Below are positions 24,793 through 55,109 of a DNA stretch of 64,000 nucleotides, one piece after another. The notes under the pieces are model-generated. The model saw only the letters and a list, made by a program, of their open reading frames with translations. It was not told the DNA's origin and searched no databases. Both the position numbers and the translations under genes were made by a program. Position 1 is the stretch's first letter. Each line of letters starts with the position of its first letter. This DNA comes from Eledone cirrhosa (taxonomy: Eukaryota), in the NCBI GenBank assembly GCA_964016885.1, contig OZ024742.1, forward strand, positions 295,430,001 through 295,494,000. The letters run 5' to 3'.

Positions 24793-24840
<48 letters not shown>

Positions 24841-24871
24841 TATTGAAGTTTGCTTGAAGCATTGTGGAACA

Positions 24872-25454
24872 ATAAGTAAATATTTATAAGTCGTTTGGAA
24901 GCCTCGACAATGCAAATGGGTAAATCTCCGGGTAACAAGGTCCGGTGGTGGAGAGAGAGATATGTAAGGGGGTGTACGTTGAGATGCGTGGTGTGTATAA
25001 GATGTGTGAGATGTGTAGAATGAAGGGAAGAGTAAAAGAATAAAAAGAATAATAACAACACAAGAGAGAGAGTGTTACCTTGGGAGAGATTTAATAGTCC
25101 CTATATATTTCGGATTCACATCCATCAACTGGGGTTTTTTCCGGGGTGGGGGAAAAGGTTGTCTGTCGGACAACTTGGAACGCGTCTTTCGCTGTCTGTT
25201 GATTTGAATATCTTTCAAATCAACAGACAGCGAAAGACTATTAAATCTCTCCCAAGGTAACACTCTCTCTCTTGTGTTGTTATTATTATTTTTATTCTTT
25301 TACTCTTCCCTTCATTCTACACATCTTATACACACCACGCATCTCAACGTACACCCACTTACATATCTCTCTCTCCACCACCGGACCTTGTTACCCGGAG
25401 ATTTACCCATTTGCATTGTCGAGGCTTCCAAACGACTTATAAATATTTACTTAT
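24872..25454. repeat. Nested foldback: ~220-bp inverted arms (24872-25099 and 25236-25454) with an internal 25-bp hairpin
   Basis: Arms are reverse complements apart from a 9-bp indel. Hairpin at 25184-25238. Confidence 0.92.
25099..25134 (-). ncRNA. Degenerate hammerhead-like motif
   Basis: ccc CAGTTGA t ggat-gtga-atcc GAAA tata TA ggg. Helices intact, two core deviations. Confidence 0.5.
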
Positions 25455-25514
25455 ATATATATATATATATGTATACATATACATATATATACACATATAT
25501 ATGTATACATATAT

Positions 25515-26272
25515 AAGGCTTTTCCCTCAAAATGAAAGGCAGACTGTATGATGCGTGTATATGAACAGCAATGTTACATGGAAGTGAAACCTGGGCGCTG
25601 TCTATAGAAGACTTGCGTAGATTAGAAAGAAACGAAGCCTGCATGCTCTGATGGATGCGAACGGCAAAGCATAAATGAATTGAGAGAGAGATAGAGCATA
25701 AGAGGAATCAAATGCTGTGTGCAGGAGAGGAGCTTGTGTTGGTATGGACATGTGATGCATATGAAGGATGACAACTGCATAAAAAGGTGCAGAGCACTAG
25801 AAGTCGATGGAAACCGCGGAGTGGGAAGACCCCAAAAGACCTGGGATGAGGTGATAACAGCCGACCTTACCTAATTACACCTCTCAAAGGCGATGACACA
25901 TGACCGTGACCTCTGGCATCACGCAGTAATACAGAAGACCCGACCCCCCACAGGTACAAGCCAAAGCTGAAGCATATAGACAATATGCCCTCACACCCTC
26001 CCACTGCAAAGTGGTCATGGAGGTGCCACGGCAAAAAAGCACCCAGCCCACACTGTAAAGTGGACGTGTAGGCGCCATGGAAAAAGGCACCCAGCACTCA
26101 CTGTGAATGAGGTTGGTGTTAGGAAGGGCATCCAGCTGTAGAAATCAAGCCAGAATCTGTTCCCATATGAGCAAGGCATGGTCAGCCGAACGGACACTGC
26201 CCACAACAGGGCAACCCGTCTAACCCATGCTAGCGTGGAAAAACGGACGTAAAACTGTGATGATGATGAAGA
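25515..26272 (+). mobile_element. RTE 3' end with UTR and (ATG)n tail
   Basis: GFSLKMKGRLYDAC..GRPQKTW, then UTR repeats and tail. Confidence 0.9.
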
Positions 26273-26911
26273 TATATATATACATATATATATGTATATA
26301 TATATATACATATATCTCTGTATATATATATGTATACATATATATGTATGTGTATATATATATATACATATATAAATATGTATGTGTATATATAGTCCAG
26401 GAAAAGTTTGGTTTAGAGATGAAATATTACTTATTTCATAGGTAAAAACAATGTAATAATAATACTAGTAATAATAATTTTGATACAATACAAAACTATG
26501 TTTCTGGTATTGCTCTAACAGGGTTACAGCCCTCACCACCCACCAGCAGAGAATATAACACTTTGACAACTGAAGGAAATTGCAGAAAAATGTACATCAA
26601 TGAGTTTGGGTATATAAATAAAAGATATAACAAAAGAAAAAGAAAAAAAAACAATAGATTCAATATTGTAGATAGTGTATTGATTTTATGTTGGTTTCAA
26701 ATGTAAACACACCAGAGATAAAAAGAACAGCATAAAAATATGTAAAATCATAAGAGATAGAAAAGTTTAGTGGCTAGTTACACAACTAGGAAGCCATTAA
26801 AAAGATAGTGGCGCCTCCTATGTCAGGAAGTATCAACAGTTGTTGGAATTATAGAACTAGCTGTTGCCACCAAAAGCGACCCCAGAAAAAATGTTTACAG
26901 CTTAGAACAGG

Positions 26912-26947
<36 letters not shown>

Positions 26948-27023
26948 TTACATAACTATTAAGCTCTGTCACCTACATAGAGCACTCTTTTTTCCTGGAC
27001 CTTCCCGACGGAATTACTTCATT

Positions 27024-27073
<50 letters not shown>

Positions 27074-27101
27074 TGGGGAAAATATATATATATATATATA
27101 T

Positions 27102-27204
27102 ATAGGAAAAAGTATGACACCGACGGCAGAGCTCAAGCCGTTTTGATGGCTATTTCTGGTCGAAACGGCTTGAGCTCTGCCGTCGGGGTCATACTTTTTC
27201 CTAT
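27102..27204. repeat. Foldback palindrome centred on a truncated hammerhead
   Basis: 42-bp arms. Plus strand reads ..TGA t ggcta-tttc-tggtc GAAA cggc-ttgagctct-gccg TC gggg. Confidence 0.8.
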
Positions 27205-27327
27205 TACCCACTCTACTACCCTAAGTATTGAGTACTCTGGTACGTTATGGTCCATCTGGTTCCTTACCACAACTCCTTCGTTATATATATATATATAAAT
27301 AAATATGGGGAAAATATATATATATAT

Positions 27328-27493
27328 AAGTGGTTACACAACAGTTAGTTCATCATACTGAGAACAATTGTTTCACCTCAGCGGATCCTCAGCTTGTAAT
27401 GGACATGTATAACCATGTCTATGATGAGCTGAGGATCCACTAAGGTGAAACAATTGTTCTCGGTATGATGAACTAACTGTTTTGTAACCACTT
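27328..27493. repeat. Foldback palindrome with one hammerhead per arm
   Basis: ~80-bp imperfect arms aagtggttaca.../...tgtaaccactt. Confidence 0.88.
27426..27461 (+). ncRNA. Minimal type-I hammerhead (canonical core)
   Basis: gag CTGAGGA t-cc-actaa-gg-t GAAA caattg TT ctc, with palindromic ACAATTGT. Antisense twin at 27360-27395. Confidence 0.7.
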
Positions 27494-28804
27494 CTACCTA
27501 ACTCGTCCTATGGACTGAGTGCTCTACCACTACGGATATTACCTTCCAGTGTTCTACCACTATATATATATAAATGTGGGGAAATATATAAATATGGTGA
27601 AAATATATATATATATATATGTAAAAATATATGCTGATTGTTTAATCTTATCAGATGATAGCTCAACATTACCTCAATCCTTCCTGAAAGTCTACACCTC
27701 ATATGTTCACAGAGGTGACTTTTCAAATCAACAACAAAATGAAAGAACATGTCCCCCACCTCCAGGCACTGACAACACTCCAGCATAGAACATGTCAGCA
27801 CAGGTCATGTTGGAAATGTGACAGTTCCTGCCTATTCTACATCTTTAGAGGTGATGAAACTACAGAAATAGTGCTATTTCATCGTTGCAAATGTCTGTGT
27901 CACCCCAATAGTTGCAGTAATAGGCCCAATGTCGATATGGTGCCAAGAATTCAGAATCCTGGCCTGTTTTGACTGGAGTAATAGAATGATAGACGAGGAG
28001 ATTGTAAAAGAGACATCTTTATATCATGGATTATAGTGAGAAATGCTTGTACAACAGGAGTGTCACGCTCCAAGTGTCAATGATTGTTATCTGATGACAG
28101 GCCTAAGCAAGATGAACAGTAAACCAGATGACACAAACCAGAGATATTTCTGAGTTCCTGTGCACAGATGGGTTATCATAATTATGATTAAAGAGTCCTG
28201 TATACCCCAGTTGTGAAATCAGAGTGACCATTCTCCTTGTCAGATTGCCACACAAGGCTGACAAATGGAGATGACTCTCTGATGGATGACCAATGGAGTA
28301 AAATTAACTTGCTTTGAGAAACTCAGACTACTTAGGAAGGTATATGCCATGAATTTCATACAGTATATTACACATACACACACACACATATATAAGTAAA
28401 TATATATATGTATATATTCTAGTATTGCTTGATTAACAATTCTGATGAGTAAATTGGGCTGGAGTTGAGTCCATAACACAAATATGGATCCTGAGCCACG
28501 CAACTGTGAAAGGTTCATAACTGAGCCTAAACAGTAAAAAACTCAAGTTTAACTTCATTTTGTTCTTAATATATATAAATATATATGTATTAAAATTTCG
28601 TATTTCTAAAGAAATTCAGGAGACAGAGGCTTTGTTTACAAATGGTGAGCAAATTTGAAAATTAGGTAGTAACGTGGTTACATAGAATTAGTCTGTTAGT
28701 TGGGATTAATTAAAACCCCTCTGAATAGAAAAAAGGATGAGTATTGACGTATATGGGACACAACCTTCATCTTTGGTTTGCCGGACCAATGTGTTACCAT
28801 ATAC

Positions 28805-28835
<31 letters not shown>

Positions 28836-29369
28836 TATATATATATATATATATGAGTGTGTGTGTGTGTGTGTGTGTGTGTATGTAAGCTAAACACACT
28901 AACCACTTAGCTACATCCCTTCACAGATTACATATAATATATTGATTTTGTGTTTGGTTTGAAATGTAAACACATCAGATAAAAAAAAATAACATAAAAA
29001 TATGTAAAATCAAAAGAGATAGAAAGTTTAGTGGCTAGTCACACAACTAGTAAACTATTGAAAAGATCATGGCGCCACCTATGTTAGAAAGTATCAACAG
29101 TTGGTGGAATTACAGAACTAGCAATTGCTACCAAAAGCCACCCCAGAAATATGTTTACAGCTTAGAGCAGCTGAAGATATGGGGGAAGGTGTAAAAGCAG
29201 ACAGTATATATGTGTGTATATACACATATATATAACAACAAAATAGGTACAGCATATGGAAGGAATATATTAGGTTAACGCTTGACATAGTAGGGTGTAA
29301 ACATCAAGTTTAATATAGAAATGGCTTCTACAGGACTAGAACTGTTTCCTTCAAAAGAAATCATATATA

Positions 29370-31028
29370 TATCATCATCACAGTTTTACGTCCGTTCTTC
29401 CACGCTAGCATGGGTTAGACGGGTTGTCCTGTTGTGGGCAGTGTCTGGTCGGCTGACCATGCCTTGCTCATACAGGAACTGATTTGGCTTGATTTCTACA
29501 GCTGGATGCCCTTCCTAACACCAACCTCATTTACAGTGAGTGCTGGGTGCTTTTTCGTGGCGCCTACACGTCCACTTTACAATGTGGGCTGGGTGCTTTT
29601 TTGCCGTGGCACCTCCACGACCACCTTGCAGTGGGGGTGTGGGGGCATATTGTCTATATGCTTCAGCTTGTACCCATGGGAGGTCGGGTACTCTGTATTA
29701 CTGCATGACGCCAGAGGTCACGGTCGTGTGTCATCGCCTTTGAGAGGTGTAATTGGGTAAGGTCGGCTTTTATCACCTCATCCCAGGTCATCTTGGGTCT
29801 CCCCACTCCGCGGTTTCCATCGACTTCTAGTGCTCTGCACCTTTTTATGCAGCTGTCATCCTTCATATGCATCACATGTCCATACCAAATGCAACCGCCT
29901 CTCCTGCATACAGCATTTGATTCCTCTTATGCTCAGTCTCTCTCTCAATTCATTTATGCTTTGTCGTTCGCGTATATTACTATTACACATCCATCGGAGC
30001 ATGCAGGCTTCGTTTCTCTCTAATCTACGTAAGTCTTCCACCTTCAGCGCCCAGGTCTCACTACCATGCAACATTGCTGTTCGGATACACGCATCATACA
30101 GTCTGCCTTTCATTTTGAGGGAGAAGCCTTTTGCAGCTAGCAGTGGTAGTAGTTCCTTAAACTTCTTCCATCCCGTTCTTACCCTAGTTATTGTACTTTC
30201 TGAACACCCACCTCTGCTGCTAATTCGGTCACCTAGGTAGCAGAAGCTGTCTACTGTTTCTACAGAGCCCTCCCAGAGATTGGTGGTACTTGTTTCCTGT
30301 GGCTGTTTGAAGCCTACATTCTTAATTAAGCTTCCTGAGATCCCGCTACATCACTTGTGGACCTATTGTTTGCATTTGGGGCAGAGAATAGAGTTCCTAC
30401 CTAGACCTTTCCTACATACTGAGCAAGGCCATTTCCCTGTGGGGATCTGGGTTCTGTTTTCTCGTCTACTTACAAGGACCTTAGTCTTTGTCATGTTGAC
30501 TTTGAGACCCTTTCTTTCTAGTCCCTGCTTCCAAGTTTGGAATTTCTTCTCTAGTTCTACCATAGATTCAGCTATAAGTGCGAGGTCATCAGCATACAGG
30601 AGTTCCCATGGGCATCCGGTCTTAAACTCCTCCGTTATTGCCTGCAGGACTATGATGAACAGGAGGGGGCTAAGAACAGAGCCCTGGTGAACCCCAACCT
30701 GTACGCTAAATTCCTCGCTATACTCATTGCTAATCCTAACTTTGCTGACTGCTCCCCTATACATGGCTTGTACCGCTTTCACAAGCCATTCATCTACTCC
30801 TAGTTTTCTAAGAGCCCACCAGATTACAGCACGCGGAACTCTGTCAAAGGCTTTCTCAAGGTCGACAAATGCCAGGTAGAGTGGCTTACTTTTAGCTAGG
30901 TACTTTTCCTGTAACTGCCTGACAAGGAAGAGGGCATCAGTGGGGCCTCTTCCTGGTACAAACCCAAATTGCATCTCGTCTAGTTTCAGCTAGTCCCTAA
31001 TCAACTGTGCTATAACTCTTTCTGTTAC
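29370..31028 (-). mobile_element. 5'-truncated RTE LINE
   Basis: QFGFVPG, FVDLEKAFD, HQGSVLSP, YADD, PHD-like finger (broken), UTR and tail. Confidence 0.95.
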
Positions 31029-31084
31029 TTATATATATAAACATGCATACATACAAAGACACACATGCACATATATAGAAATGA

Positions 31085-31131
31085 CTTCTACAGAACTAGA
31101 ACTGTTTCATTCATATGAAATCATCAGGAAA
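31085..31131 (-). ncRNA. Type-I hammerhead ribozyme (canonical core)
   Basis: tttc CTGATGA t-ttc-atat-gaa-t GAAA cag-ttctagtt-ctg TA gaag. Relatives at 29325-29364 (truncated), 55071-55082 and 61022-61068 (degenerate). Confidence 0.75.
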
Positions 31132-31216
31132 TATTGAGTCATCTTTTTAACTGTGGTCACCTCCTGATGCACATTGGAAATTTACCTGTGACACACACAC
31201 AGACGCACATGCCTAT

Positions 31217-33381
31217 ATCATCATCACCGTTTTACGTCTGTTCTTCCACACTACCATGGGTTAGACGGGTTGTCCTGTCGTGGGCAGTAGCCGGTCAGCT
31301 GACCTTGTCTTGCTCATACAGAAACTGATTTTGGCTTGATGTCTACAGCTGGATGCCCTTCCTAACACCAACTGCATTTACTCTGAGTGCTGGGTGCTTT
31401 TTTCCGTGGCGCCTACACGCCCACTTTACAGTGTGGGCTGGGTGCTTTTTTGCCATGGCACCTCCATGACCACTTTGCAGTGGGAAGATGTGGGGGCATA
31501 TTGTCTATATGCTTCAGCTTCGGCTTGTTCCTGTGGGGGGTCGGGTCTTCTGTATTACTGCATGACACCAGAGGTCACGGTCGTGTGTCATTGCCCTTGA
31601 GAGGTGCAATTGGGCTGTTCGCGTATATTACTATTACATATCCATCGGAGCATGCAAGCTTCGTTTCTTTCTAATCTGTGCAAGTCTTCTATAGACAGAG
31701 TCCAGGTTTCACTCCCATATAACATTGTTGTTCATATACACGCATCATACAGTCTGCCTTTCATTTTGAGGGAAAAGCCTTTTGCAGCTAGCAGTGGCAG
31801 TAGCTCCCTGAACTTCTTCCATCCCGTTCTTACTCTAGTTATTGTACTTTCCGAACACCCACCTCTGCTGTTAATTCGGTCACCTAGGTAGCAGAAGCTG
31901 TCTACTGTTTCTACAGAGCCCTCCCAGAGTTTGGTGGTGCTTGTTTCCTGTGGTCGTTCGCTGCTTGCTGTCCCAGCACAGCCGCTACATATGAAGCTTA
32001 CATTCTTAGTTAAACTTCCTGAGATCCCACTACATCTCTTGTGTACCCTTTGTTTGCATTTGGGGTAGAGGATGGAGTTCCTACCTACATCTTTCCTACA
32101 TACTGAGCAAGGCCATTTCCCTGAGTGGATCTGGGTTCTGTTTTCTCGTCTACTTAGAAGGACCTTAGTCTTTGTCAGGTTGACTTTGAGACCCCTTCTT
32201 TCTAGTCCCTGCTTCCAAGTTTGGAATTTCTTCTTTAGTTCTACCATGGATTCAGCTATAAGTGTGAGATCGATCATCCGCATACAGGAGTTCCTATGGG
32301 CATCCGGTCTTAAACTCTTCCATTATTGCCTGAAAAACTATAATGAACAGGAGAGGGCTAAGAACAGAGCCCTGGTGGACACCGACCTGTATGCTAAATT
32401 CCTCGCTATAGTCATTGCTAACTCTAACTTTGCTGACTGCTCCTCTATACATGGCTTGTACAGCTTTCACAAGCCATTCATCTACTCCTAATTTTCTAAG
32501 AGCCCACCAGATTATAGCACGGGGGACTCTGTCAAAGGCTTTTTCCAGATCGACAAATGCCAAGTAGAGTGGCTTACTTTTAGCTAGGTACTTTTCCTCT
32601 AACTGCCTGACAAGGAAGAGGGCATCAGTGATGCCTTTTCCTGGTACAAACTCAAATTGCATCTCATCTAGTTTCACCCAGTCCCTAATCAACTGTGCTA
32701 TAACTCTTTCCGTTACTTTCATGACCTGGTCCATCAGCTTTATACCTCTATAGTTTCCTCTATCTAGTGCATCACCTTTACCTTTGTAGCAGTTGACAAT
32801 GATGCTGCTGCACCAATCCTTTGGTATGATACCCGGTTAACAATTTGTGTGGTTATGGTGTAACCTACCGACCCAGATGCCTTCAGCATCTCGGCATCTA
32901 TACCCGATGGACCGGTTGCCTTCCCTGTCTTCATATGTTTGATTGCCTTACTTACTACGCTGCTGCTGACTTATACTGCTGGCCCCTCTATAGGGTCCAC
33001 TTGGGTTAGGGTCTCTTTTTCCCATGCATTCTCCTCGCTTAGTAATCTTTCATAATGGCTCTTTCACGCAGCTTTCTTCTCAGCACTTGTGAGGGCAAGC
33101 TCACCATTATCATTCTGGATACACTTCTCTCCAATGACATCACAATTCTCTCTGACACACTGCCTCGCAATCTTGAACACCTCCTGTTTCTGGTCCTCAC
33201 GTTGCAAAACATGCTTGAATTTTCTATCCTCTGCTTCTCTTCTAGCTAAGTATACTTGTCGCCTAGCTTCCCTCCTGGTCTCTATGCAATGTACCCTGCT
33301 ACCCCCATTCTTCCATTCTTTCCATGCCTGTCTCTTAGCCTTAACTGCCTCATCTACCTTATTGTTCCACCACCAAGTCAC
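31217..33381 (-). mobile_element. 5'-truncated RTE LINE with internal deletion near the 3' end
   Basis: TWWWN.. through RT and zinc finger, frameshifted. ~240 bp missing near 31610 relative to the 29370 copy. Confidence 0.95.
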
Positions 33382-35424
33382 TCTCTATATATATATTATA
33401 AAAAAAAGAAGAAATATGGTATCACGTATACATTCTCAATTTATTACATCATCAAACAGATTAAAATACACTAACTTTAGCAAGCATACTCATTGTGTAG
33501 TCAGAATATCAGATGTTGTAATGACAAAGGCAGTCTTCAAAGGATGTCAGAAACGATAGTCTACATGGGGTTTTATAAGCTTTGGACAATGTACTGTTGA
33601 AATTGGGAATACAGATGGGGCTAGCACCTTCATATTTAATACCCTAGGCTAGCCCTACAATATGCATCCCCTTCTCACAAATAAAAAAAATATATTCAAC
33701 ATACAATTTGGCAAGCTGAGAAACCCAGTTCATGACACTTCTTGCTTTTACCACATAATTAAAATTACTAAGCCTACATTTTCTACTGCACAGCCCACAC
33801 TTACCCTCACCAAATCATGTCATAGGTCATAACATTATGCAACTCTCTTCACCACATTGGATATTTCCAAAATGCTACTATATGGGAAAGATGTTTAGTG
33901 GCTTATTTATTGATTGCAGGAAATTATATATTTAATTTAATTTAATTATACAAATGTGTATAAAACTGTGACTCTTTAATGTTTACTAATACACCTGTTT
34001 GAAGTGTGTAACTTAAGTGGTTGTCTAATTGGCCTAATGGTAGTGTTGGCTCGGTGTACAGGAGATACAATAGAGAAGATATAAGGAGTTACTGAAAGTG
34101 GAAGCAATTTAAACTGGAGCAACCAACATATATGGGTAAATGATTAATAAGAGAGTAAGATACTACCATCTCTAATGTTCAGTGGAATATAAAATATTCA
34201 TACACATTCTGGATGAATGGTGAAATGGATATTACAACACTTGGTGCTGATCATTAATCAAGAGGACCAATTTAAATTGGTCTTTCTGCTAGACTGCCTA
34301 TGCTTTTCTGATCTTCTCAATATTATCATAGTGAACACTTCAAGGTGTTGCAGGAAATAGTTGGTTTCATATTAGCAGTTACATTCTTATTCTTGTTCAT
34401 CATCACTGTTCACACTGTTGCTGTTGTCTTCACCTCTAACATCACTGCCATCATCATCATTTTCATCTGTTTTTCCATGCTTGCATGGGATGGTTGGGTC
34501 TTTCTTTTTCTAGCACAACCTACCCACTTAATACATTCCCTTGTCATCTCCTATGTGAGGTTCAGCCTTCTGAGATCAGTTCTCACCATTCTCTGCCCAG
34601 GTTGTTATCTACAACAGCTTCTGCACCCTAGGATATCTTGGCCCTTCTACTCTGGGTTCTATTGGTCATCTATGTGTTAAACTCATAATAAAGAAGTGAT
34701 AACGTCTCATCTCAATTTCTTTTCTCAGCAATTTGCAACTGTTGTTTTCACTGGTTAGTCATGGAAGGAAGGGCAGTGCTCATAATTATTTTTAGAGCCT
34801 TTCATGACTCATGGGAGGTAGGTAAGAAGATGGAACAACAACAAACAGGTGTTATTTTTGAAAAGAGTAACCAAATCATGTCCTACTTTTTTTTAAAAAG
34901 GAAGAACATATTAGATAATGTAGTCTTAGATTTACAAAAATATGCGATGGTCATAGTTAGAATACCTTTGAATATAGGTATGTTTGATCAGAACTGACCT
35001 AGGGTTAAACAACATCAACATTCTTTTTTCTTTTTTATTGTTTAGTTAAAGAGGGAACGGCAGTGCCCATCACCCTTATCTGAACTTCTGAAATTAGCAG
35101 AGTGAGGTTATTTTTAAACCAGAGACATGGCCTAAATACTTACAACAAAGTGAGTTCCACTAAAGGCTCCCAAAGGCTAGGTGGTGGTGTCAAACCAGAC
35201 AACTGATCAAATCTGCCATCCAAGTAGATTACAGCAAGATTTGAACTCAGAACATACAGAGCGAGGACAAATACCTAAAGGCATCTTGACTGATGCCTTA
35301 ACAATTCTATCAATCTGGTACTCTTATTTTATCAACCACTAAATGATGAAAAGTGAAATTGATTTTAATGGGATTTGAACTCAGAGCTCAGAAAGTACCA
35401 ATACTGCTCTAATGACTTACAATT

Positions 35425-35773
35425 CATCATCATCATCATCATCATTTCATTTTACGTCCGCTTTTCCCTGCTTGCAAGGGTGGGACGGGAACTGATTCTG
35501 GCTTGATTTCTACAGCTGGATGCCCTTCCTAACACCAACCTCATTTACAGTGAGTGCTGGGTGGTTTTTGCCGTGGCACCTACACGACCACTTTGCAGTG
35601 GAATGATAGGGACCTCAGTCCCTATCATCTCATTTCTACAGCTGAGTAAACTGGAGCAATGTGAAATAAAGTGTCTTGCTCAAGGAAACAACACATCACC
35701 CGGTCTGAGAATTGAACTCACAACCTTTCGATTGCAAGGCCAATGCTCTAACCACTAAGCCATGTGCCTCCAT
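35425..35773 (-). mobile_element. SINE family 1, full length
   Basis: Same structure as the 56524 copy. Confidence 0.9.
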
Positions 35774-36664
35774 CTTAAATATAAATTGTAGTTTAAGTTT
35801 GGAAATGCCCTTATCACATTCATTGTTATATTTCTAATGAAAAACACTGCCTACGATTTCCACATAATCTTGAAAATAATTTAGAATTTGGAGACATTTA
35901 GTAGTGTAACAAAAATGTTCATTATTAAGCTGGAGTTTGAAACATAAAGGTTCTTAGATAAAATTATGTGGGAAGGTTTTCAGATCACTTTGACATAAAC
36001 AATTTTGTATTGTAGAACTGGGTTTGGCTTCAAAAGGGTTAGATTAATTCAATGTTACTCTTAAACTCTTTCATAGCTACCTTTTCATCATTTGCTCCTA
36101 ATGCACTTGAAATTTTAATATACTTTTGTAAGAAATACACCATTTACAATTTTAAAATGTATGTTTAAAATTGTATATATGTTATGTATAAAATTGTAGT
36201 ATTAAAATGTATATAATGCAGTAGTATTGACATGTATTTATAAAATATTTTAATTGATTATTTTATGTTGGCAATCTAAAATTTTGGAAACAGGTGTTTT
36301 TATTAAAAAATCCTATATTAAAAATATTTTAGTGCAAACTGAATAAAAAATAATATTCACAGAGTTCTCTCTCCTTTTTCTTCCTTCACTCTCTCCACTT
36401 CTCTCTTTCTAACTCCCCTCCTAACTCTGCTCTTCTCTTTCTCTCCCTCAGCTCTGCCCTTTCTCTCTTTCTGTGTATATGTATATATATATTACACGTT
36501 CACATGTGAGTCCTTTACTCCGTTATTTTACTATATATATATATAGAGAGAGAGAGAGTGAGGGAAGAAGAAGCTGAGGGAGAGAAAAAGAGCCGAATGA
36601 GAAGGAGAGTGAGAATAAGAAGGAGAGTGAGAATGAGAGAAAGAGATAAAAAGAAAGAAGTTGA

Positions 36665-36704
<40 letters not shown>

Positions 36705-37600: not shown

Positions 37601-37787
37601 GTTAACTTGTCTTTGGTGCAACTGAAGAAATGGTTTTCACAGCAGAATGTAACTAAGCTGTCAGGGTGGAATGAAGTATTTTCTTGATATCAAGGTAATA
37701 GAAATTATTGTATATAACTAAGTGAATAAATTATGATATCATCCATGTCAACATCCTTTTTACATATGTGTTTCCATGCTGGTATGA

Positions 37788-38723: not shown

Positions 38724-38755
<32 letters not shown>

Positions 38756-38789
38756 ACAAACATTCTATCTTAGACAGCATACTGGTTTG

Positions 38790-42870: not shown

Positions 42871-45800
42871 GTAGAAATCATGCAAAATGATGACATGTAT
42901 GAGCAAGATGGTATCCTACTGACCTGTCAAGCCTTGGACAATGACAACCTGGCTAACACATGTCAACAGAAAACAAACGTAAGATGATGATGATGAAGGA
43001 GAACATAAACTATTGTTTCTAATTTAGGCACAAGGCCATGGAAGCTGCGTAAAGATTAAACAACAAAAACGTCAAACTGTTTTACAGCTTCCCTTGTTTC
43101 CTTTTTCGTTTCCCTATGCATAATCTGCCTCCCATTGGCCTTCAATATTTGAAATTTTTAAAAAATTTTATTTTTTTCCCTTTATTTAAAATTATTTTTC
43201 TAGTTTATTACTTGTCTCACTAGCTCTTTCTGATTACCAACTGTAAGGAGTACTCATTACTCCCCCTAGTTTGCCATGGCTTACTAGCTTTAGACAGACG
43301 TTTAAATTGAATAAATAAATATTATAGATAAATAGGGAGAGGGGAAAGTCAATTAAAACAGACCCAGTATTTAAAGAAAGTTAAGGAAAGAACCTGATTG
43401 TCAGATTGGACCAATGAAATTATGTTCCTGTAGCTTTTTCAATTGCTGAAATTATCTGCCAGTTGTAACTCCTGATTGATGGGATTTGAACTCAGAATAC
43501 ATACACAGGACTTGAACAGATACCACAATGGTTTCTTAGTAAAATGACTCTTTAACAATTCTGTAAATTCTTGGACTGGTACTTTATCTATTATTTTGTT
43601 CGATATGAAAATTCCGCCAATCCAACAAAATAAATCAATTTAAGTTAGATTGATAGCTTTGAAAATTTAGCTATTTGATTCAAATGATTTCTGTAGAACA
43701 ATTAACGAATGATATTAATAAATGAATTATATGACTATTATCATTTAAAATGATTGTATTTAAATGAGCAAAGCTAAGATATAATACAAAAAGAATAACA
43801 AAGCTAATGAAGTTCTATTTTAATCATTGATGTAACTTAGTGTGATGTAAATCTAATTAATGAAATTTAATAATTGTTGTTATCTAAATATTATCATCAT
43901 CATCATTTTATGTTTGCTTTCCATGCTGGCATGGTTTGGGCAGGTTATCATGGTCCAAAACTAAACAGGTTGGAGTGACTTCCTCTCACTCATATGTTCC
44001 ATGTTTGGCTTGAATTTTACAGCTGGATGTCAGTTCTAACATGAACAACATTACAAAATGTACTGGGTGTGTTTTTTTCCACTATCACTTTATAGAGTGG
44101 ACTGGGTGCATTTTAGATAGGCTCCAGCACTTGAGGAATTGTTACATGCTTGTCCAAACTGAAGAGTCTTCTCAGGCTCTATATTATCTTTGTTCAATCA
44201 CCAAACACTATAACTTTTAGCCTCTCATGTTTAGTATTGCAGTATTTTTACTGGTCTTTTGTATAATACCAAACAACTCATTCACCAGTACAAGCACTTT
44301 GGTACTAAATGTAAACGTGGTGAGACTGAAGGCTACAGTGTTTGGTGATTGAATAGAGACTGTGTATATTCTCAGGGGACTCCTCAGTCTATTTTAACAT
44401 ATCTAATGTTGATACAGTTAATGATATATAACACAAGCATCTTATAACCATTTTCCCTTGCAGGCTCCATGACATGGGGATCATTTTTGAAGCAAAGTTT
44501 TATAGCCAAATGTGCCTATTCTAAGCCAGTAACATTGATTGATACAATGAGAAAATAAATAAATCCTCACAAACCTCTCACACATCCTAAATGCTACAAC
44601 AAAGATGGAGAATGTATACCTGAACAGAATAAGATTACTATTACTATTAATTCTAGAAAATTGGGTAGGCTAATTTGCATATATAAGGATAGGAGCAGAT
44701 TTGATCAAGGACACACTGTTTCTATTCATCTTTTTATTACTGACACTACCTGCTGGTCACAACTCCTGGCACAATCTGAACTCAGAATGCACAGTTCAAT
44801 TCTTTAATAATTCCGTCTAGTCTGGTACTTTATTTATTAATCTCAAAAGGATGAAAAGCAAGGTTAATGTCAGCAGAATTTGAACCCAAACTGTAGTGAA
44901 TCAGAACAAACACAGAGGCACCTAATTTGATGCCCCAAAGACTGTCAATTTGCATATATAATTCATTCTTTTCCTGTCTACAGTGTTTGTTGAAATCTAT
45001 AGATATACAGTTTAACATTAACAGATGTAATATGACTCAATCATTTCTTTATATTTTCTAAATATATGAATTAGATTTAGAATTATAATTTTATAACTAT
45101 TTTCCCATCATTAACATGGGTTGGATGAAGTTTATTTTGGTTTCATAGTCGTGAAGTGATTGAGAATTCAAGGCTTCCCTTTTGGACAGGATGTTTGTCT
45201 GATGCAGTGCTCCTTGACATGGAGTACTTTTAAAGCAATGTTTTGCAGATGTCCTTTCTGATGCCAACCCTATTAATCACCTCTTACAATATGCACGGAT
45301 ACATTGTACTTATTCTAAACCAGATATCATACATGCAACATTAACTTAGAACTAATTATAAAATCATTTTCCTTAATTTAGATACTGCGTAGTTAATTCT
45401 TGTCAGTATAAATAAATATAAAAAAGTATCTTTAAATTTTCAATTAAAAAACAAAATACTATTCATAATTGGTAACATAATTCTTTTCACAGAAAAAATC
45501 TTTTAAAGTTTTGTGTGCATTTTTACTTTATTAATCAAACAATTATCAGATATAAAATTATTCCAAAATATATGAGTTAGATGCATGAACTAACAGAAAG
45601 ATTAAAGAAAAGAGACTTCAATTTAGCAGTAATCTTTGGAATTATAAAATGAATGTTTCCATAAAAAAGACAAAAGAAAGGAACCATAATTGTTTTTTTT
45701 TAATGGCAAATCTTTAACAGTAATTTTTGAGAGCAAAATGTCAAATGAACAATCCTAAAAAAATTAAATAAATAAATAAAATAGAAATAAAGAAAAGTAT

Positions 45801-46604
45801 GTAATTAATGTAGAAATAATTGCTAATGACCTCTGAATGATTAGAAGTTGTGTGAATAGCTTCATTTCACTGCAGACTATATTATTACACGAGCTTATAC
45901 TTGTAAATGCTACAAGGCAAAATAAATGAGTTTTGTCAGAAAGTTTTTCTTGTCTCTTGTCAAAGCTCTTATTAAAAAACAATTTTAGTTCATAAAATAT
46001 GAAAAATCATAAAAATCTGTTCTAAACACCCACTTCTGGAATAGTCTTTTAAAGTCTTTTAGAAAGAATGGCTGAATTTTATGAGAAGAGCAACCTGTAC
46101 ATAAAAGATTTGCTTTTACAAGTTTATTCCCAACAACATGCTTGACATGAAAACAAATACATGAAATATATAGAAACAAAGGATACTTTATCCTCTTCCT
46201 TTCTTGCTTCCCAAGGTTAATTGCACAGCAGTGACACCCTTGACAAGTGTTTGTTATAGAACTTTTGTGGGAAAATGCAAAGATAGTTTCCTGATGCATT
46301 TCTTCAGGTATTTAGCAAGATACAAACAAATTCAGCACACCTGTCTGTGCATGCCTTAAAGTATTTGATCTAAATGCTCTAACAATTCTGTGGTACTAAA
46401 ACTGTCAAAAAAAAAACAAGTCATTGTGTAGTATAGCACAAACCAGCATTAGGAAAGTCATCCAGCTGTAGAAACTATGCTAAAATGGAACATATGAATG
46501 AGATGTGGTCATCCAACCTGTTTAGTCTCAAAACATGACAAGCCATCCAAACTGTTAGCATAGAAAAACGTTGTAAATAATGGTTATATATATATATATA
46601 TATA

Positions 46605-46683
46605 CAGGATGTCCCCCCAAAATGTATACACACTTCAACAACATTCTAATCAAAGTGTGTATACATTGTTTTGGGACACCCTG
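46605..46683. mobile_element. ~80-bp Tc1/mariner MITE
   Basis: TA|cagg.tgtccc..aatgtatacacactt / aagtgtgtatacatt..gggacaccctg. Confidence 0.8.
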
Positions 46684-46926
46684 CATATATACAGACATGG
46701 AAAATAAATGATGGGGATGATAATGGGGATTAAGGTTGGGTTATAAATTTATAGGTATATAAATACCAACAACTGATATGATTACTCAATATTTGTGGTA
46801 GAGTTATATTTATTGGTTGAGAGGTACACGAGTTTCATAAATACTGGCTAGTCATCTATTTTGGATGAATAGCCAGCATTGATAAAATTTGAATACCACT
46901 CAACTGATATATATATATATATATAT

Positions 46927-46971
46927 TGCTTAAACTTTTAATCTGTACTAATAATAAATATTTGTTGTACA

Positions 46972-47003
<32 letters not shown>

Positions 47004-47196
47004 CAACCCTAATTTAGTTCTCTTTGGCTTTTGGTCTTTATATTTATTATTACTATTTGGCTCTTTTGGTAGAGCACTCTTTAAACCTAACCACTATTCA
47101 GAAACTACACCTTAATCTACAGACCTATTTTTCTCAGTTCCAGATGATCCCGTTTAGGGTAAAAGCAGAAGTTTTTGCTTAAACCTTTAATCTGTA

Positions 47197-47200
<4 letters not shown>
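46927..47200 (+). mobile_element. 249-bp PLE pLTR-like monomer with CAG-core hammerhead remnant (47137-47184)
   Basis: Terminal direct repeat tgcttaaac..ttaatctgtactaat. Homologous to 22126-22290. Confidence 0.7.
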
Positions 47201-47280
<80 letters not shown>

Positions 47281-47711
47281 CAATCTGACTATGATCCCTT
47301 ATAAAAGTATTTTTTTCCTGCTGTCATGGCATAAAATATGGCATGACATACACATATGATGCTGATGATACACTCACACCCATTCATAGTAAACAACAGA
47401 TGAATAAATATTTTGAAGTTATAGCAAGACCATTTTTTCATGTAAAGTAAATTAATAAGAGTATTAAAAAACACTGAAAATATATCAAATGAAGAACCAA
47501 CAATAGGTATAGGTAAAACGAAGAGATACTTGGAAATAAAGTGGTGAAGCTACATATGGAGATAGAATATATTTAAAATGCTACTCAGTCTCTGTTATAT
47601 AGTAGACATTTTATTTCAAAGTTACACCACTTGATTTTAGATGTACACATATATCATACACATACATACATGCATATATATACATACACACATACGTATA
47701 TATGTATGTGT

Positions 47712-47745
<34 letters not shown>

Positions 47746-47764
47746 ATATATACATATATATATC

Positions 47765-48110
47765 ATCATTCATCATCATTTCATTTTACGTCAACTTTTT
47801 CCCTGCTTGCAAGGGTGGGACGGGAACTGATGCTGGCTTGATTTCTACAGCTGGATGCCCTTCCTAACACCAACCTCATTTACAGTGAGTGCTGGGTGCT
47901 TTTTTTGCCATGGCACCTCCACGACCACTTTGCAATGGAATGATATGGACCTCAGTCCCTATCATCTCCTTTATACAGCTGAGTAAACTGGAACAATATG
48001 AAATAAAGTGTCTTGCTCAAGGAAACAACACATCACCCGGTCAGAGAATTGAACTCACAACCTTTCGATTGCAAGGCCAATGCTCTAACCACTAAGCCAT
48101 GTGCCTCCAT
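47765..48110 (-). mobile_element. SINE family 1, full length (inverted tail fragment at 48253-48316)
   Basis: Same structure as the 56524 copy. Confidence 0.9.
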
Positions 48111-48111
48111 G

Positions 48112-48157
<46 letters not shown>

Positions 48158-48604
48158 CATATATACATATACCCACATACATACGTAAATATACATATAT
48201 ATATGTACATACATCATACACACACACACGCACATATATATATATATATAAATCCCATCCCACCCTTGCAAGCAGGGAAAAAGCGGACGTAAAATGAAAT
48301 GATGAAATGATGATGATATATATATATTACTATTGCTATGAAGCTATTCCAGTGACTCAAGGGCCATGAATTTCATGCTTAATGAACTTTTTAAAAACCA
48401 GCTATAATATAAATCATTCTATCCATGTATTAAGTTTTATTTCTCTTGTTTGAGCAACAAAATCTCTAAAGCTGATCTAAAAAAACTGAACCTCACAGAG
48501 GAAATGATGAAGGAATATGAATGGTAGTAGTTTGTGCTGGACCAGGCCCATCTAACCCATACAAGCATGGAAATGTGGATGTAAAATGATGATGATGATA
48601 TGCT

Positions 48605-48636
<32 letters not shown>

Positions 48637-48720
48637 CAGGGTGTCCCCCCCCAAAAAAAATGTATACACACTTCAACAACATTCTAATCAAAGGGTGTAT
48701 ACATTTTTTTGAACACCCTG
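48637..48720. mobile_element. ~84-bp Tc1/mariner MITE, second copy
   Basis: TA|cagggtgt...acaccctg|TA with the same spacer caacaacattctaatca. Confidence 0.85.
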
Positions 48721-49724
48721 TACATATATGCATACACACACATTCATATATATGCATATATACATACATATATATACATACACACATACATACATATATA
48801 TGCATATATACATACACACATACATATATATGCATATATACATACACACATACATACATATATATATATATACATATATACATACATGCAGATACATATA
48901 TATACATACACACATACATATATATATACATATATGCATGCATACACATTTATATATAAACAATAATCTCAAGGGACCTTTTGCCAAGAAAAGAAGAGGA
49001 AATGGTTATATAATTTGACATATCTTAATGTTGGAATATTCTCCATTTTTTGTTATATTATTTATGCTATGAAATAGAAGAAATAGTTTAATAATTCAAA
49101 AGTCTAATTCCAATATCACAAAAATCTGCCTTCAGGAAGAATATGAAAGATTAATACACAGCTAAATCAATATCTATAGTTTTCAACAAACTGAGACGAT
49201 GAGACTGTTGACAAAACACTATTTTCTGATGATGTCTGAAGTGAGACTAGTTCTCCATGTATTCTGCGATATTTTAGATACAGAAATCAACAGTTTTAGT
49301 TATAAAAATCTGTTTGTTACCATGTCTTATCAACTATAACGATATGCAATGTGAATTTGTATAGGTGTCATGACAAAAGTGCCCAGTCCACACTGTAAAG
49401 TGGTCTTGTAGGTCTCACAACAAAAAGCACCCAGCCCACACTGTAAAGTTGTCATGTTTGTGACATGACAAAAAGTGCCCAGCCCACACTGTAAAGTGAT
49501 TGTGTAGGTGTCACAACAAAAAGCACCCAGCGCACACTGTAAATGTGTAAATGGCATTATGAAGGGCAGCCAGCTGTAGAAACCAAGCAAAAATCAGTTC
49601 TGTATCAGCAAAACATGGTCCTCCGATCTGATATCTCTCAAAAGGACAGCCTGTCCTACCCATGTTAGCATGGAAAATGGACGTTAAAGAATGATGATGA
49701 TGATGATATATATATATATATATA

Positions 49725-50155
49725 TTAGTTTGATAGCTTCTGCTATCTAGGTGACGTAATTAGCAATGGAGAAGGGTGCTTTGAAAGCATAGTAGCTAGA
49801 ATAAGGATAGGATGGAAAAAGTTGAGAGAGCTACTCCCACTATTGACAACAAAACGTTTCTCCCTACGCACAAGGACAACTGTATGACACCTCTGTGCAA
49901 AGTGCGATGCTGCAAAGCAAGGAAACATGGGCTGTGACTGCAGAGGACATGCATAGACTGAAGAGAAATGAAACAACCATGCTCCTTTGGATGAGCAATG
50001 TAAATGTGAGAGAAAAGCAGAGCTTGGATAAGCTGAAGGAGGAGCTGGGTTTAAGAGGAATCTGAGGTGGTGTGCAGGAGAGACGATTGCATTGGTATGG
50101 ACATGTGATGCGTACAAACAATGATTGTTGGGTGAAGAAGTGCCAGGAATTGCCA
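49725..50155 (+). mobile_element. Degenerate RTE fragment
   Basis: DSFCYLGD..ARIRIGWKK.RELLPLL..RRLHWYGHV. Confidence 0.85.
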
Positions 50156-51054
50156 TCCTTGGATTATCAACATCATCATTAGCATCATCACAGTTTAACA
50201 TCTATTTGCCATACTTGCATAGGTTACACAGGTTATCCCATTATGAGACAAGTCAGGTCAGGTGATCATGTCTAGCTTATATGGAACTGTTTCTGACTTG
50301 ATTTCTATGGCTGAATGCCCTTCTTAACACCAATCCCATTACAACATGGGATGGGTGCTTTTTATTGTGGCACCAAAACAACCATTTGACAGGATAGACT
50401 GCATTCTTTTTCATTGTGGTGCCCACACAACCATCTACAAGGTAGACTAGGTGCTTTTTGTCATGTCACCAGCAAAATTTCAATTACAGGGTAGACTAGG
50501 TGCTTTTTTTTGTTGTGTCACCAGCATGACCACCTTACAGAGTAGATTGGTTCCCTTTTGTATATTCCATGTATATTATTTGATCATATCCATGTGCTGT
50601 GTAGGTGTTATATTTCTATATGCCTACATCTGCTGACAGTATGATTAAACTAAGAGCATGTATTTCTAAGGCAGCAAATTGCTAACAAAGAAAAACATTA
50701 GTTAACTTACTTAGCAATAAACACAAGCAGTTGATTGATAGTAAAGTGAACAAAATATGTTTTGATGCTTGGATTATTAAAAATATTTAAAGCTGATTAA
50801 ATATAGATTGAAAAAATGTAATGATGGAACTAGAATAAAGTAAAAATGACAAAACAAACCAAATCTTTCTCCATCTATATTTCATAATATTTCAAGGTTT
50901 GAACTTCTTTATTAAATGAAGAAAAAACTATGCATTTTGTTCTTACAAGTTATTTTTTGTTGTGTGAGTGATTGTTGGTGGAAATAGGTCACTGAATAGG
51001 TGACATATGCAAACCGGTCACAATAACCAGTTGACCTTATGTAGCTCAGATCAG

Positions 51055-51300
51055 TTGTTAATATTAGGTTTATATCTGTTGATAAGAAGGGCCTCCTTGA
51101 TTTGCAAATTACCAATCTTCCTCTCAATAGCTTCTATGGTGATCTTATCTTGAGTATGGCATTTTTGTAGGTGTTTTTTGATAGAGGAAGTATTCATGTT
51201 CATATTGTGTTGTTTGTCAATTTTACTTTACTCTACTCTAGCTTCACCTCTATATTTCCTATTCATATTGTACTAGTGTTTCTGATACATTTTTGATTAC
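51055..51300 (-). pseudogene. Old Penelope GIY-YIG C-terminal remnant
   Basis: SSIKKHLQKCH..ITIEAIE..LQIKEALLINRYKPNINN on minus. Confidence 0.65.
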
Positions 51301-51839
51301 ACATCCTACAATGATTAAAAAAATATGTATATAATATTATTTGGAGACTAACATTATATATTTTTTATAGGAGAGGAAATCTGTAGAGCCTTTAGAGAGA
51401 TGGTACTTATTCTGACTGATGATGATGATGATGACAACGATGATGATGTATTCACTCTAATTTTAAATTTTGTCAAGGTCTACTTTGACTTTCACCCTTT
51501 CAGGGTCAATAAATGAAGTTTCAGTCTAGGGTGATGGATTGGTGGAATTGTTAGTGTTGGATGAGATTTCTTGCAGTATTTGTTCTGGCTCTTTGCATTC
51601 TGAGTTCTAATTTGTAACTCTGTTTAACCTGAACTTGGCCAGCATAGAAGAGGCTTTAAGAAAAGACTCTTGCCTTAGGTGTCATACAATGAGATCAAAC
51701 ATGAAACCATGTGATTGTAAAGCACATTGTATATCTGGTAAACTTCTATATTTAGAAGAATGCAGTGGAATTCAGAAGAAATTTTTATAAAAGGAAGCTT
51801 CAGGAAGCTTCTTTTAAAGTCACTCAGTTTTAACATTCT

Positions 51840-52392
51840 TTATAAACACATACACTGATATACACGCACAGGCATATACATACAAACACACAGGGACATA
51901 CATACACATTTGTGAAAATACACACAGAGATAGCCATACTTTGACATACTTACACAAGCAAACACACAAACATGCACATAAACAGGCATACAGAGACACA
52001 TATTGAAAGATACAGATATATACACATGGACATATACAGACACTAACACACACACACATACATACATACACATACATACATACATGCACACAGGCATACA
52101 TTTACATAGGCATACATGCACACACAAACAGGCACATAATACATGCACACACACTGACATAATGCACACCCAACATTCAGATACAGACATACACAGCCAT
52201 ATACCCCAAAACAGACATACACACTCACACACAAACAGAGTCCTAGCTACACTGATAGTCACAAATATATACATACATACACATGCATACACACTGAACC
52301 AGACAGACATACACACACATAAACAGATACATATATGCTCTGACATTCACAGACATAAACATACAGACATACACACACAGACATACACACAA
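51840..52392. repeat. Decayed (CA)-rich simple repeat
   Basis: Directly visible. Confidence 0.9.
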
Positions 52393-52753
52393 AAAGACGT
52401 ACCCAAAACAAAATATTTAAAAAACCTGCAACAAATAAATCTAAGAATCGAAAGTAACCAATGAAAATAAATGAAAGACATTATCTAAAAATACTGCCAT
52501 TAACAAAACATTTCTCAATACATGAGAACATAAACAGATATTTAAAGCAAAACCAACACAATGTAATGGCTACATCTAAAATAATACAATTCACTAAAAA
52601 TATAATTATAAAATTAGCTACAGGTAATAGCCATAACTAGTCTGCCCACATCCCTCACTCCTTGTCAGTTTTACCTGACCAAATTGAATTGAAATAATTA
52701 TTCAGAACAAAAGGCTGAAATATTATTATACTTTATTCACTCTTAAAAAATAT

Positions 52754-52971
52754 TTAACCCTTTTGATACCAAACAACCTGAAACCAATTCTAGTTTTATG
52801 ATATAAAGCTGCTTGTTTTAAAGTATTTGTATTTATATTCAAACCTCCCATCATAATTTTATGTAAAATCCTTTGTTGATTATTTCATTACTATAATTAA
52901 TTTAAAACAGCAACAACTATACAACTTAAAACCAAAGGTAGTTTCAAGCAGTTTCATTTCAAAAGGGTTAA
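52754..52971 (+). mobile_element. piggyBac-like MITE family B
   Basis: TTAA-cccttttga ... tcaaaaggg-TTAA. Related decayed sequence at ~6790-7035, ~35810-36042 and ~53300-53740. Confidence 0.6.
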
Positions 52972-54856
52972 GTAATGTTTCAAATATCAGCTTAATAACA
53001 AAAAAGCTAGTTATATTATTAAATTCTTTCAATTTAAAAAAAATATATATATTTTTGAAATTAATTGAAACACATTAGCAGTACCTTTCATTAGAAATGT
53101 GATAATTAAAGAGTTAAAATGAAATGTTTATTCCTTTGTAGAAATAGAATCAAACTTTTGAAAATCATATTTGATAGATTTTACTAAAATTATTACCATT
53201 TACTAGTTAAAAGAATAGACATGTAAAAATACATTGATTTATTCTTAATATGGAAGTTAGTCAAATGATTTTAAATGATTTAACAGTTTTGGTACAAATT
53301 CACCTTAAGCCACCCGTTGTTCAATGATAGAAAACTTTATTTTAAAGTGATTATATTTGTCTAAAACCCTTCCATCAAAACTCTATGTGAGAACCTTTCT
53401 TAAATTTAATAAAAGAAAGCTAGTTATATCACTAAATTCCTTTAAATTCACAATTATTTTCAAAATGATTTGGAAATTGTAGGTAGTGTCTTTCATTGGA
53501 AATATGGTAATGTGTATACTGCTTATTCATTAGAAATATGGTTAAAGTGTATCTATTCATCTCAAAAACTTCCATTCTAGTTTTATGTAAGAACTCTTTT
53601 TAAGATATATTCCAAACACCAACTTAATAATGAGAAAGTTATATTACTAAATTCCTTGAAATACTTGATTATTTTCAAAATTATTGGAAAATCATAGGCA
53701 GTGCCTTTTGTAAGAAATATGGTAACAGAAATGTTAAAATGACCAAACTGAAAACTGATTTTATTTACTTATAAAAAAATACTTAAAACAAAATAACCCT
53801 TCCTTTTAACAACTGTATCAATGTTATGAAATTGATTTTATATCTGATTGATTTTATTGAAATAGCTACCACTTGTTAAACTAAGAGGACATAAAAACAT
53901 ATCATAAATATAGGACGTTATACCTCCTCCAAAATATCGATGTATATATACATATTTACATAAAGGTCATGAACATATGTGTTTGTTTTATTATGCAGGA
54001 GCTTGGGAACAATTGACAATGTAAGATGCAGGCTCACTGTAATGGACTCTTATTTTGGAAGTGATTTTATATGATTAAGAAAAAATATAATTCCCAAAAG
54101 TTTTTTTCTAATTTTTATCTATTCAATTAACTTATAACAGTATAGACCTGAAATGAAGCAAAAATCTTTGAGTGAGAATCTGTATGTTATTATAGAGGGG
54201 GGAAATCTGAATTTACTGATTAAAATAAATATAGAAAATAGATATTGTTTTTTTTTTTATTTTTGTTAATTATTTTACAAGAAGCAGGACCAGTCCAACC
54301 AATATTCTTTCCACTTGAATGTATCACAAATGAGAAATGACTGCACATTGCAATAGTATATTTGGAGCAATATATAAATTATAAAGTAATAAAGATTTAA
54401 AAGTTTTTTTTTTAATTTTCTTACCTGTTAGAAAACCGGGAAAAATGATTTTAGTCCTAGAATGCTCCATGGTTCTCAATAAAAATCTGATGGAATAAAA
54501 TAGAAACCAATAATAGAGAAGAAGAACAACAACAAAACCAAATATACAAAAAAAACCCAGCAAAAAAACACCTAGAACAAATGGAAGAATTCAATAGTCT
54601 TTATACATGTTAGAAATGACTGATTTCAAAGTAATATATAAAGATAGGAAATTGGAAAACTGTTCATGATGAATATATATTTCTGATCAATAATAATAGA
54701 GAAGAGGAGAGAGAAGAAGAACAAATATAAATTAATTCTGTCAAATATCTGTTTCAAGTAGTTTTGATAATACTTTTATCATATATATATATATACATAT
54801 ACGTATGTGGTTGTTGGCTGAGGGAAAAGAGTACTCAATACTGAAGTAGAGTTTAA

Positions 54857-55012
54857 ATATTCTTTTTATTAAACCTAAATAGTGAGTCTTGTTAATCTGG
54901 AGTTTCGCATGTTTATAACAGGGTCATCAGACAAGAACTGAATGACCCTGTGATAAACAGGCAAAACTCCAGAGTAACAAGCCTCACTATTTAACCTTAA
55001 TAAAATGAATAT
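54857..55012. repeat. Foldback palindrome with a hammerhead in each arm
   Basis: Consensus of the arms: cttgt CTGATGA c-cctg-tgataaa-cagg-c GAAA ctc-ca-gag TA acaag (54888-54935 minus, 54938-54981 plus). Confidence 0.8.
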
Positions 55013-55037
55013 ATATAGTCAATACATTAGTAGAGTG

Positions 55038-55109
55038 TATACAACAAATTTAATATAGAAATGGCTTCTAGTCCTGTAGAAGCCATTTCTATATTAAATT
55101 TGTTGTATA
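55038..55109. repeat. Perfect 33-bp-arm hairpin at the cleavage site of the 31085 HHR family
   Basis: tatacaacaaatttaatatagaaatggcttcta-gtcctg-tagaagccatttctatattaaatttgttgtata. Confidence 0.88.

Follow-up and report, generated by a model that had tools for sequence, protein, structure and literature searches.

Head-to-head ends of Penelope-like elements in Eledone cirrhosa likely turn at the predicted transcription start and not at the hammerhead cleavage site

A 64,000-nt stretch of the Eledone cirrhosa genome (GCA_964016885.1, contig OZ024742.1, positions 295,430,001 to 295,494,000 of the forward strand; hereafter the window, in whose own numbering coordinates are given) contains five palindromes without open reading frames (ORFs), and these raise the question of where such hairpins turn and how they are made. 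A preliminary description had centred each of them on or next to a hammerhead ribozyme (HHR) of a different family and had proposed that reverse transcriptase (RT), on reaching the self-cleaved 5' end of its template or on stalling in the HHR, snaps back. The five hairpins are head-to-head 3' ends, i.e. pseudo-long terminal repeats (pLTRs), of five families of Penelope-like elements (PLEs), one arm being tailed and the other tail-less. Their probable, though by no means certain, origin is the priming of RT by both ends of a cut TA target on an uncleaved transcript, the two cDNAs being joined at or short of the predicted transcription start (+1).

All five palindromes are located at the places reported for them (24872-25099/25236-25454, 27102-27204, 27325-27496, 54857-55012 and 55038-55109), all within TA runs, and genome searches confirmed that they represent five different repeat families, named here A (palindrome 27328), B (27102), C (54857), D (55038) and E (24872). 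A point absent from the preliminary description is that in every one of them a tail extends past one outer end only. The parts are as follows, the 5' ends of arms being numbered from the predicted cut.

24836-24871, minus strand: family E tail, 36 nt, at this end only; contains the ATG (24862-24860) of the family ORF
24872-25213, minus strand: family E tail-bearing arm, from the tail boundary to the predicted +1 (25213), 111 nt upstream of the cut
25102-25131, minus strand: family E HHR-like core, non-canonical (CAGUUGA, 4-bp helix II, GAAAUAUAUA); predicted cut between 25102 and 25101
25214-25238, plus strand: family E tail-less arm, 5' stub (-106 to -82), part of an inner hairpin; true apex 25213/25214
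25236-25454, plus strand: remainder of the family E tail-less arm, restarting at cut+3 past a deletion of ~84 nt with 3-nt microhomology; outer end at the tail boundary
27052-27101, no strand: TA-rich target unit of ~40-45 nt, copy 1 of 3; the others at 27283-27324 and, diverged, 27563-27590
27102-27165, minus strand: family B tail-less arm, 5' end -43; predicted +1 at -39/-40
27159-27282, plus strand: family B tail-bearing arm, 5' end -25; GAAAC-helix III-GUC at 27162-27184, no CUGANGA core; 78-nt tail 27205-27282
27325-27407, minus strand: family A tail-less arm, 5' end -44
27408-27562, plus strand: family A tail-bearing arm, 5' end -50; full HHR core 27429-27458, cut after 27458; 66-nt tail 27497-27562
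54805-54939, minus strand: family C tail (54805-54856) and tail-bearing arm; full HHR core 54930-54893; 5' end exactly at the predicted +1 (54939); TATA-like box +30
54942-55012, plus strand: family C tail-less arm, 5' end -34
55018-55070, minus strand: family D short tail (55018-55037) and tail-bearing arm, 5' end -1
55066-55109, plus strand: family D tail-less arm, 5' end -12, giving a 6-nt loop; cut after 55078

A full-length copy of family E holds a single ORF with Pfam matches to RVT_1 (E 3.5e-10) and GIY-YIG (E 5.5e-5), and at two loci (L251 and L252) two pLTRs stand ~3.3 kb apart. Family E is an endonuclease-bearing (EN+) PLE; an affiliation with Naiad/Chlamys was considered and is excluded by the domain order, the EN being C-terminal. 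Families A-D are assigned to the PLEs, as probable members, by their layout (pLTR end, HHR-type motif, tail and TA target). At three loci (L232, L237, L247) family E pLTRs are fused to inverted or direct pieces of their own ORF via short microhomology, as in template jumps. The three target units at 27052-27590 are likely long nested target-site duplications, A presumably having been inserted before B. The window tails of B, C and D have in common the motif CTCTAC...GTATTGAGTAC, which is a candidate signal for protein binding or for the start of RT.

Relative to the predicted cut, the arms in the window have their 5' ends at -44/-50 (A), -43/-25 (B), -46/-34 (C), -1/-12 (D) and -111/-106 (E). 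The arms had been said to start at or near the cleavage site, and this holds in one of the five cases, 55038. There, one arm does end at -1 and turns near the cut, but the other ends at -12, and the junction is a native 5-nt inverted micro-repeat spanning the cut triplet. In 24872 the right arm indeed resumes 2 nt after the cut; however, it does so (at cut+3) because of the internal deletion of ~84 nt with its 3-nt microhomology, and the true apex lies 111 nt upstream. The inner hairpin at 25184-25238 was considered as a second family and rejected; it is native family E sequence, which therefore places the true apex at 25213.

The genomic pattern was read from a position-picked set of 138 stretches of 10 kb (1.38 Mb; 20 contiguous beside the window, 118 over contigs C1-C9), on which nine PLE families were mapped with real copies as references; the tail boundary of family G was redefined after the initial mapping. 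First searches of the 3.0-Gb genome gave candidates numbering in the hundreds to thousands for each of families A-E. Loci from those early queries that selected for long arms or palindromes were kept out of the main count; later C and A search loci overlap in part with the earlier ones. Mapping returned 54 head-to-head pairs, 4 of which were excluded as one arm reached the reference edge, leaving 50 clean pairs, 49 of them scored for their apex. The end of the longer arm was taken as the apex, 'near' means within 6 nt of the cut or of the predicted +1, and expectations assume uniform ends. A recurring class of PLE-derived hairpins formed at 5' truncations, as had been suggested, is borne out. 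Nor are such palindromes equally frequent in other repeats: the 54 pairs stand against 306 PLE matches, compared with 2 pairs among 690 matches to RTE, short interspersed element (SINE), mariner and L2/CR1-type references, which overlap and are partly redundant, one of the 2 being a self-palindromic match. A de novo palindrome finder returned 128 palindromes from the same 1.38 Mb, some redundant in tandem arrays, and 37 of these contain a CUGANGA..GAAA-like string.

The distribution of apex-to-cut distances, put forward as a check in the preliminary description, showed no peak at the cut: none of the 49 apices fell within 6 nt of it, while 28 lay that close to the predicted +1 (4.6 expected; nine families). 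Among the 120 tail-bearing copies long enough to be detected even if they started at the cut, 37 begin near +1 and 3 near the cut (7.1 expected). Queries consisting of post-cut sequence only (families A, C, D and E) likewise gave no apex near the cut in 53 cases. With these queries, apices were near +1 in 16/22 (D), 4/8 (E) and 3/10 (C), all 19 family C copies ended at or downstream of +1, and the family E apices were at -111, -111, -110, -106, -98, +12, +38 and +101. Overall, 9 of 334 arms end within -9 to +6 of the cut. Copies that retain the post-cut motif without native pre-cut bases numbered 0/27 in E, 1/42 in A and 1/23 in C, the latter two being point changes; nothing in the genomic copies points to cleaved templates. 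In family G, six copies seemed to start at cut+2 and one at -3, but these matches were spurious and fell on the AT-rich ends of other sequences. The arms run through the cut site and the template was therefore uncleaved. A link to ribozyme cleavage as the main route is not supported.

The apex edge, at -40 in B, -46 in C, -44 in D, -111 in E, -71 in G and +96 to +101 in H as numbered from the cut, likely corresponds to the start of transcription as predicted from sequence. In six of the nine families a TATAWAW motif with at most one mismatch precedes the modal apex by 24-34 nt (background 0.10-0.22), and the TATA-like box lies ~30 nt upstream of the edge in B, C, D, G, G2 and H. In families whose +1 was set by this box alone, the apex is near +1 in 25/38 pairs. 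Families G, G2 and H were examined after the start-site idea had arisen, with few pairs each (4, 3 and 8). The apex can also be far from the HHR, at -111 in E, -71/-75 in G/G2 and +101 in H, and in these families 10 of 38 tail-bearing copies begin near +1 and none near the cut; in H the HHR is situated ~100 nt upstream of the edge, outside most arms. On this reading, an HHR is found close to the apex because it is near the RNA start and not because of cleavage. A start site within the pLTR is also described for Penelope of D. virilis in a passage of PMC2377424.

The claim that an HHR accompanies each palindrome was partly upheld. A full core (CUGANGA...GAAA...UH) is present in A (27429-27458, by descriptor search) and in C (54930-54893, minus strand, read by eye). 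On the other hand, the D palindrome retains the helix III loop and cut triplet only, the intact HHR of that family being at 31127-31089 (descriptor search), the core of E is non-canonical (CAGUUGA, in register with helix I), and B has GAAAC-helix III-GUC only, its native upstream sequence being without CUGANGA. CUGAUGA-like letters in the B palindrome were rejected as a core; they belong to the antisense arm and correspond to native sequence that has undergone CpG decay. Family F, a sixth insertion presented below, has a core reading CAGAAGA. In the E and F cores (25102-25131; 22125-22175) A replaces U at position 4, in register with helix I, and B retains the 3' half only. An Rfam scan (E<=1) returned no hammerhead match at any of the five palindromes; its matches to miRNA families, far under the gathering scores, are due to the hairpin shape and were discarded. 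The predicted +1 of C, D and F falls on the 5' strand of HHR helix I, and cleavage would therefore strip the cap and the first 45 nt; judged from this arrangement, the HHR may possibly serve as an off-switch for translation.

How the two arms came to face each other is indicated by their outer ends. Exactly one tail was found in 46/50 position-picked pairs and in 112/117 pairs from search loci and the window (158/167 in total), and in 29 of the 46 the tail-less arm begins within 3 nt of a fixed boundary. A simple snap-back of the first cDNA leaves this start of the second arm at a fixed tail boundary unexplained. The loop is donated by the tail arm in A, C and E and by the tail-less arm in B and D of the window, and at family D search loci by the tail arm in 12 cases versus 14 for the tail-less arm. 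It measures 0-2 nt in 38 of 151 rows (~34 after discounting 4 false calls in TA runs), which is too tight for a fold-back primer. Non-majority variants are common to both arms above the level in shuffled pairs in A, B and C (0/300) and F (1/300), which points to a single template, and junctions are almost all distinct among position-picked pairs. In the two-ended priming that we favour, a promoter in the pLTR would start the RNA 40-110 nt upstream of the HHR cut. The RT-endonuclease would then cut and extend both strands, with RT starts at two neighbouring internal sites that bound the tail, as shown in vitro for another PLE. To judge from the genomic pattern, one DNA end would use the inner site and the other the outer, giving one tailed arm. 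Both arms traverse the cut site; they would stop at the RNA 5' end or sooner, and be joined by short microhomology, often from HHR helices, or nearly blunt. As a general scheme, PLEs may integrate by symmetric twin priming, in which one RT-endonuclease dimer, one uncleaved RNA, both ends of a double-strand cut and two fixed start sites suffice and both cDNAs run off the transcription start in the 5' pLTR; to us this generalisation is about evenly balanced between right and wrong.

Several points weigh against this account. The +1 is itself predicted from sequence; families B, C and D prompted the start-site idea, the arm ends were visible when the +1 of E and F was picked, and a TATA-like box upstream of the edge is missing in A, E and F. 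In B, C, D and F, although not in E, G, G2 and H, the 5' strand of helix I falls on the predicted +1, so that start site and fold edge are indistinguishable in the former four. Arm ends, which as derived from BLAST are accurate to a few nt, show no pyrimidine-purine preference (25/133; background 0.20), and an extra cap-derived G at -1 is not clear (T 27, C 16, G 14, A 3). Variant sharing is weak in D (14/300) and E (7/300) and absent in H, and autonomous partners were shown for family E only. The tail-less arm is longer in 25 position-picked pairs, equal in 18 and shorter than the tail arm in 3, which also fits fold-back of a leading cDNA, and a small family C cluster at -8 to -10 (6/19) would be compatible with some stalling or microhomology at helix III.

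The alternative that survives best, though we consider it unlikely, is a hybrid in which a leading tail-less cDNA, on reaching the RNA 5' end, folds over and serves as its own template, while priming at the other DNA end adds the tail and anneals; the apex would still equal the transcript start. The predominance of longer tail-less arms (25 against 3) would follow, as would the variants common to both arms and the native inverted micro-repeats at several junctions. However, the tail arm gives the loop in 3/5 window cases and 12/30 D pairs, and the ~34 of 151 loops with only 0-2 nt speak against a fold-back. Somewhat less probable still is that RT stalls at the folded HHR (at the edge of helix I, or at helix III/GAAA) and switches template, the start site being irrelevant. 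The apex edge at helix I in B, C, D and F is consistent with this, as are the 6/19 C copies ending 8-10 nt upstream of the cut (-8 to -10) and 4/17 A copies at -4 to -9, and this is what remains, weakly, of the stalling suggested in the preliminary description; yet E, G, G2 and H have an equally sharp edge that is remote from the HHR, core-less B has one too, and the position-picked set has no excess near the cut. A further proposal, made in passages of PMC3846280, is that self-priming on antisense RNA yields a head-to-head palindrome. It accounts for the orientation and the junction palindromes, but it leaves unexplained both the outer ends at two start sites of RT on sense RNA and the presence of a TATA-like box in sense orientation 30 nt upstream of the apex edge, and appears improbable. 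More doubtful again is the originally proposed snap-back at the self-cleaved 5' end, contradicted as the main route. In its favour are 55038 and a few D copies with one arm end at -1 to 0 (L106, and L192, which was picked by the loop of the query), together with one of four retrozyme-array apices near the cut; these are set against 0/49 and 0/53 apices at the cut, 9/334 arms within -9 to +6, and the near lack of copies without native pre-cut bases (E 0/27, A 1/42, C 1/23). That autonomous-like mini-elements of the type of miniature inverted-repeat transposable elements (MITEs) are copied as entire palindromes has next to no likelihood: two junction strings do recur six times each among 30 B loci, but the query had selected for them, the junctions differ between position-picked pairs and are variable, arm lengths vary, the tail is one-sided and the TA-rich duplication is ~40-45 nt long, so that a MITE identity was rejected.

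Two further head-to-head insertions in the window had been left out of the preliminary description.

20240-22283, no strand: family F head-to-head insertion, the sixth case; tail-less arm 20240-20600 (minus strand), tail-bearing arm to 22283 (plus strand)
20585-21193: GIY-YIG-like ORF remnant of family F between the arms, without a Pfam match
22347-24102, no strand: head-to-head array of 310-nt HHR units, the seventh case; three HHRs on the minus and two on the plus strand, canonical and retrozyme-like

The outer ends of the array are at unit positions 139 and 165, and its apex lies 70-96 nt downstream of a cut. The same one-tail asymmetry is seen in arrays of this unit at L143 (170/139) and L188 (139/164). 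These positions suggest that a PLE protein may move the 310-nt retrozyme-like arrays via the same two start sites. The five hairpins themselves were considered as a non-LTR retrozyme and rejected since, unlike the array, they are not tandem HHR-bearing units. Inverted pairs of non-PLE repeats with RTE-type ends at 60653-60910 and 56540-57409 are arranged tail-to-tail around simple repeats and differ in origin. The frames at 828-1769, 57620-60082 and 62647-63276 we take, from their translations, to be a mariner-like transposase remnant and RTE-like and L2/CR1-like RT frames, respectively. Such a mix of repeats would suit an octopus.

The role of PLE hammerheads is unsettled, and an apex that follows the RNA 5' end while ignoring the ribozyme is a sharp prediction for the in vitro system of PMC11167929. 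If symmetric twin priming holds, the tail, the inverted pLTR and the junction palindrome would all stem from a single reaction, the hairpins would be a fossil map of PLE start sites, and the hammerhead would stay uncut during retrotransposition in vivo. Extrapolated to 3.0 Gb, ~36 pairs per Mb for nine families would amount to ~100,000 hairpins. If transcribed, short inverted repeats in such numbers could be of consequence for double-stranded RNA and for editing.

In the twin priming of LINE-1, both target ends prime RT and the cDNAs are joined by microhomology, resulting in a 5' inversion. There, the arms copy non-overlapping parts of the RNA, whereas here the same part is copied twice from fixed starts.

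Passages of PMC3846280 and PMC8557442 already describe 5'-truncated pLTRs in inverted orientation, with a single-sided tail and a palindromic junction. The hairpin layout is therefore known, and the link to the transcript start and to two-ended priming is the newer element; our literature search, of limited coverage with subscription papers mostly outside it, returned no paper linking the PLE inverted junction to a start site or to twin priming. The EN+ PLE insertions in those passages resemble the present ones in their head-to-head inverted pLTR, junction palindrome, one-arm tail, TA-run targets and TATA plus initiator-like motifs in the pLTR. They differ in that here mostly just two stumps are present, at ~36 per Mb, and in the tails, described there as 30-40 nt and measuring 50-80 nt here in A-D. 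The same passages leave the junction unlinked to the start site, PMC3846280 proposing antisense self-priming, and in PMC8557442 a passage names the formation of inverted pLTRs and one-sided tails as an open question.

Pairs of HHRs on opposite strands are likewise described in part of PMC4209133. As far as the accounts of minimal type I HHRs of PLEs and non-LTR retrozymes in sections of PMC4209133 and bioRxiv 10.64898/2026.07.22.740005 go, these share with ours a minimal HHR in the pLTR (full core in A, C and D), an unpaired base at helix II, a palindromic loop III and opposite-strand pairs, and the low monomer cleavage described there would fit ours as well; E and F differ by the A at core position 4, B by the missing 5' core, and the five hairpins by not being tandem arrays.

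The closest counterpart in vitro is PAc (Anolis Poseidon), for which both strands were cut and extended, RT had two start sites, a dimer was predicted, HHR cleavage was dispensable and uncleaved RNA was the main template (PMC11167929). As in the hairpins described here, two internal RT starts delimit the tail, the ORF start lies inside the pLTR/tail and the template is uncleaved RNA. Joining of the cDNAs and inverted products were not followed in that system, whereas the hairpins in the Eledone genome look like the finished genomic product.

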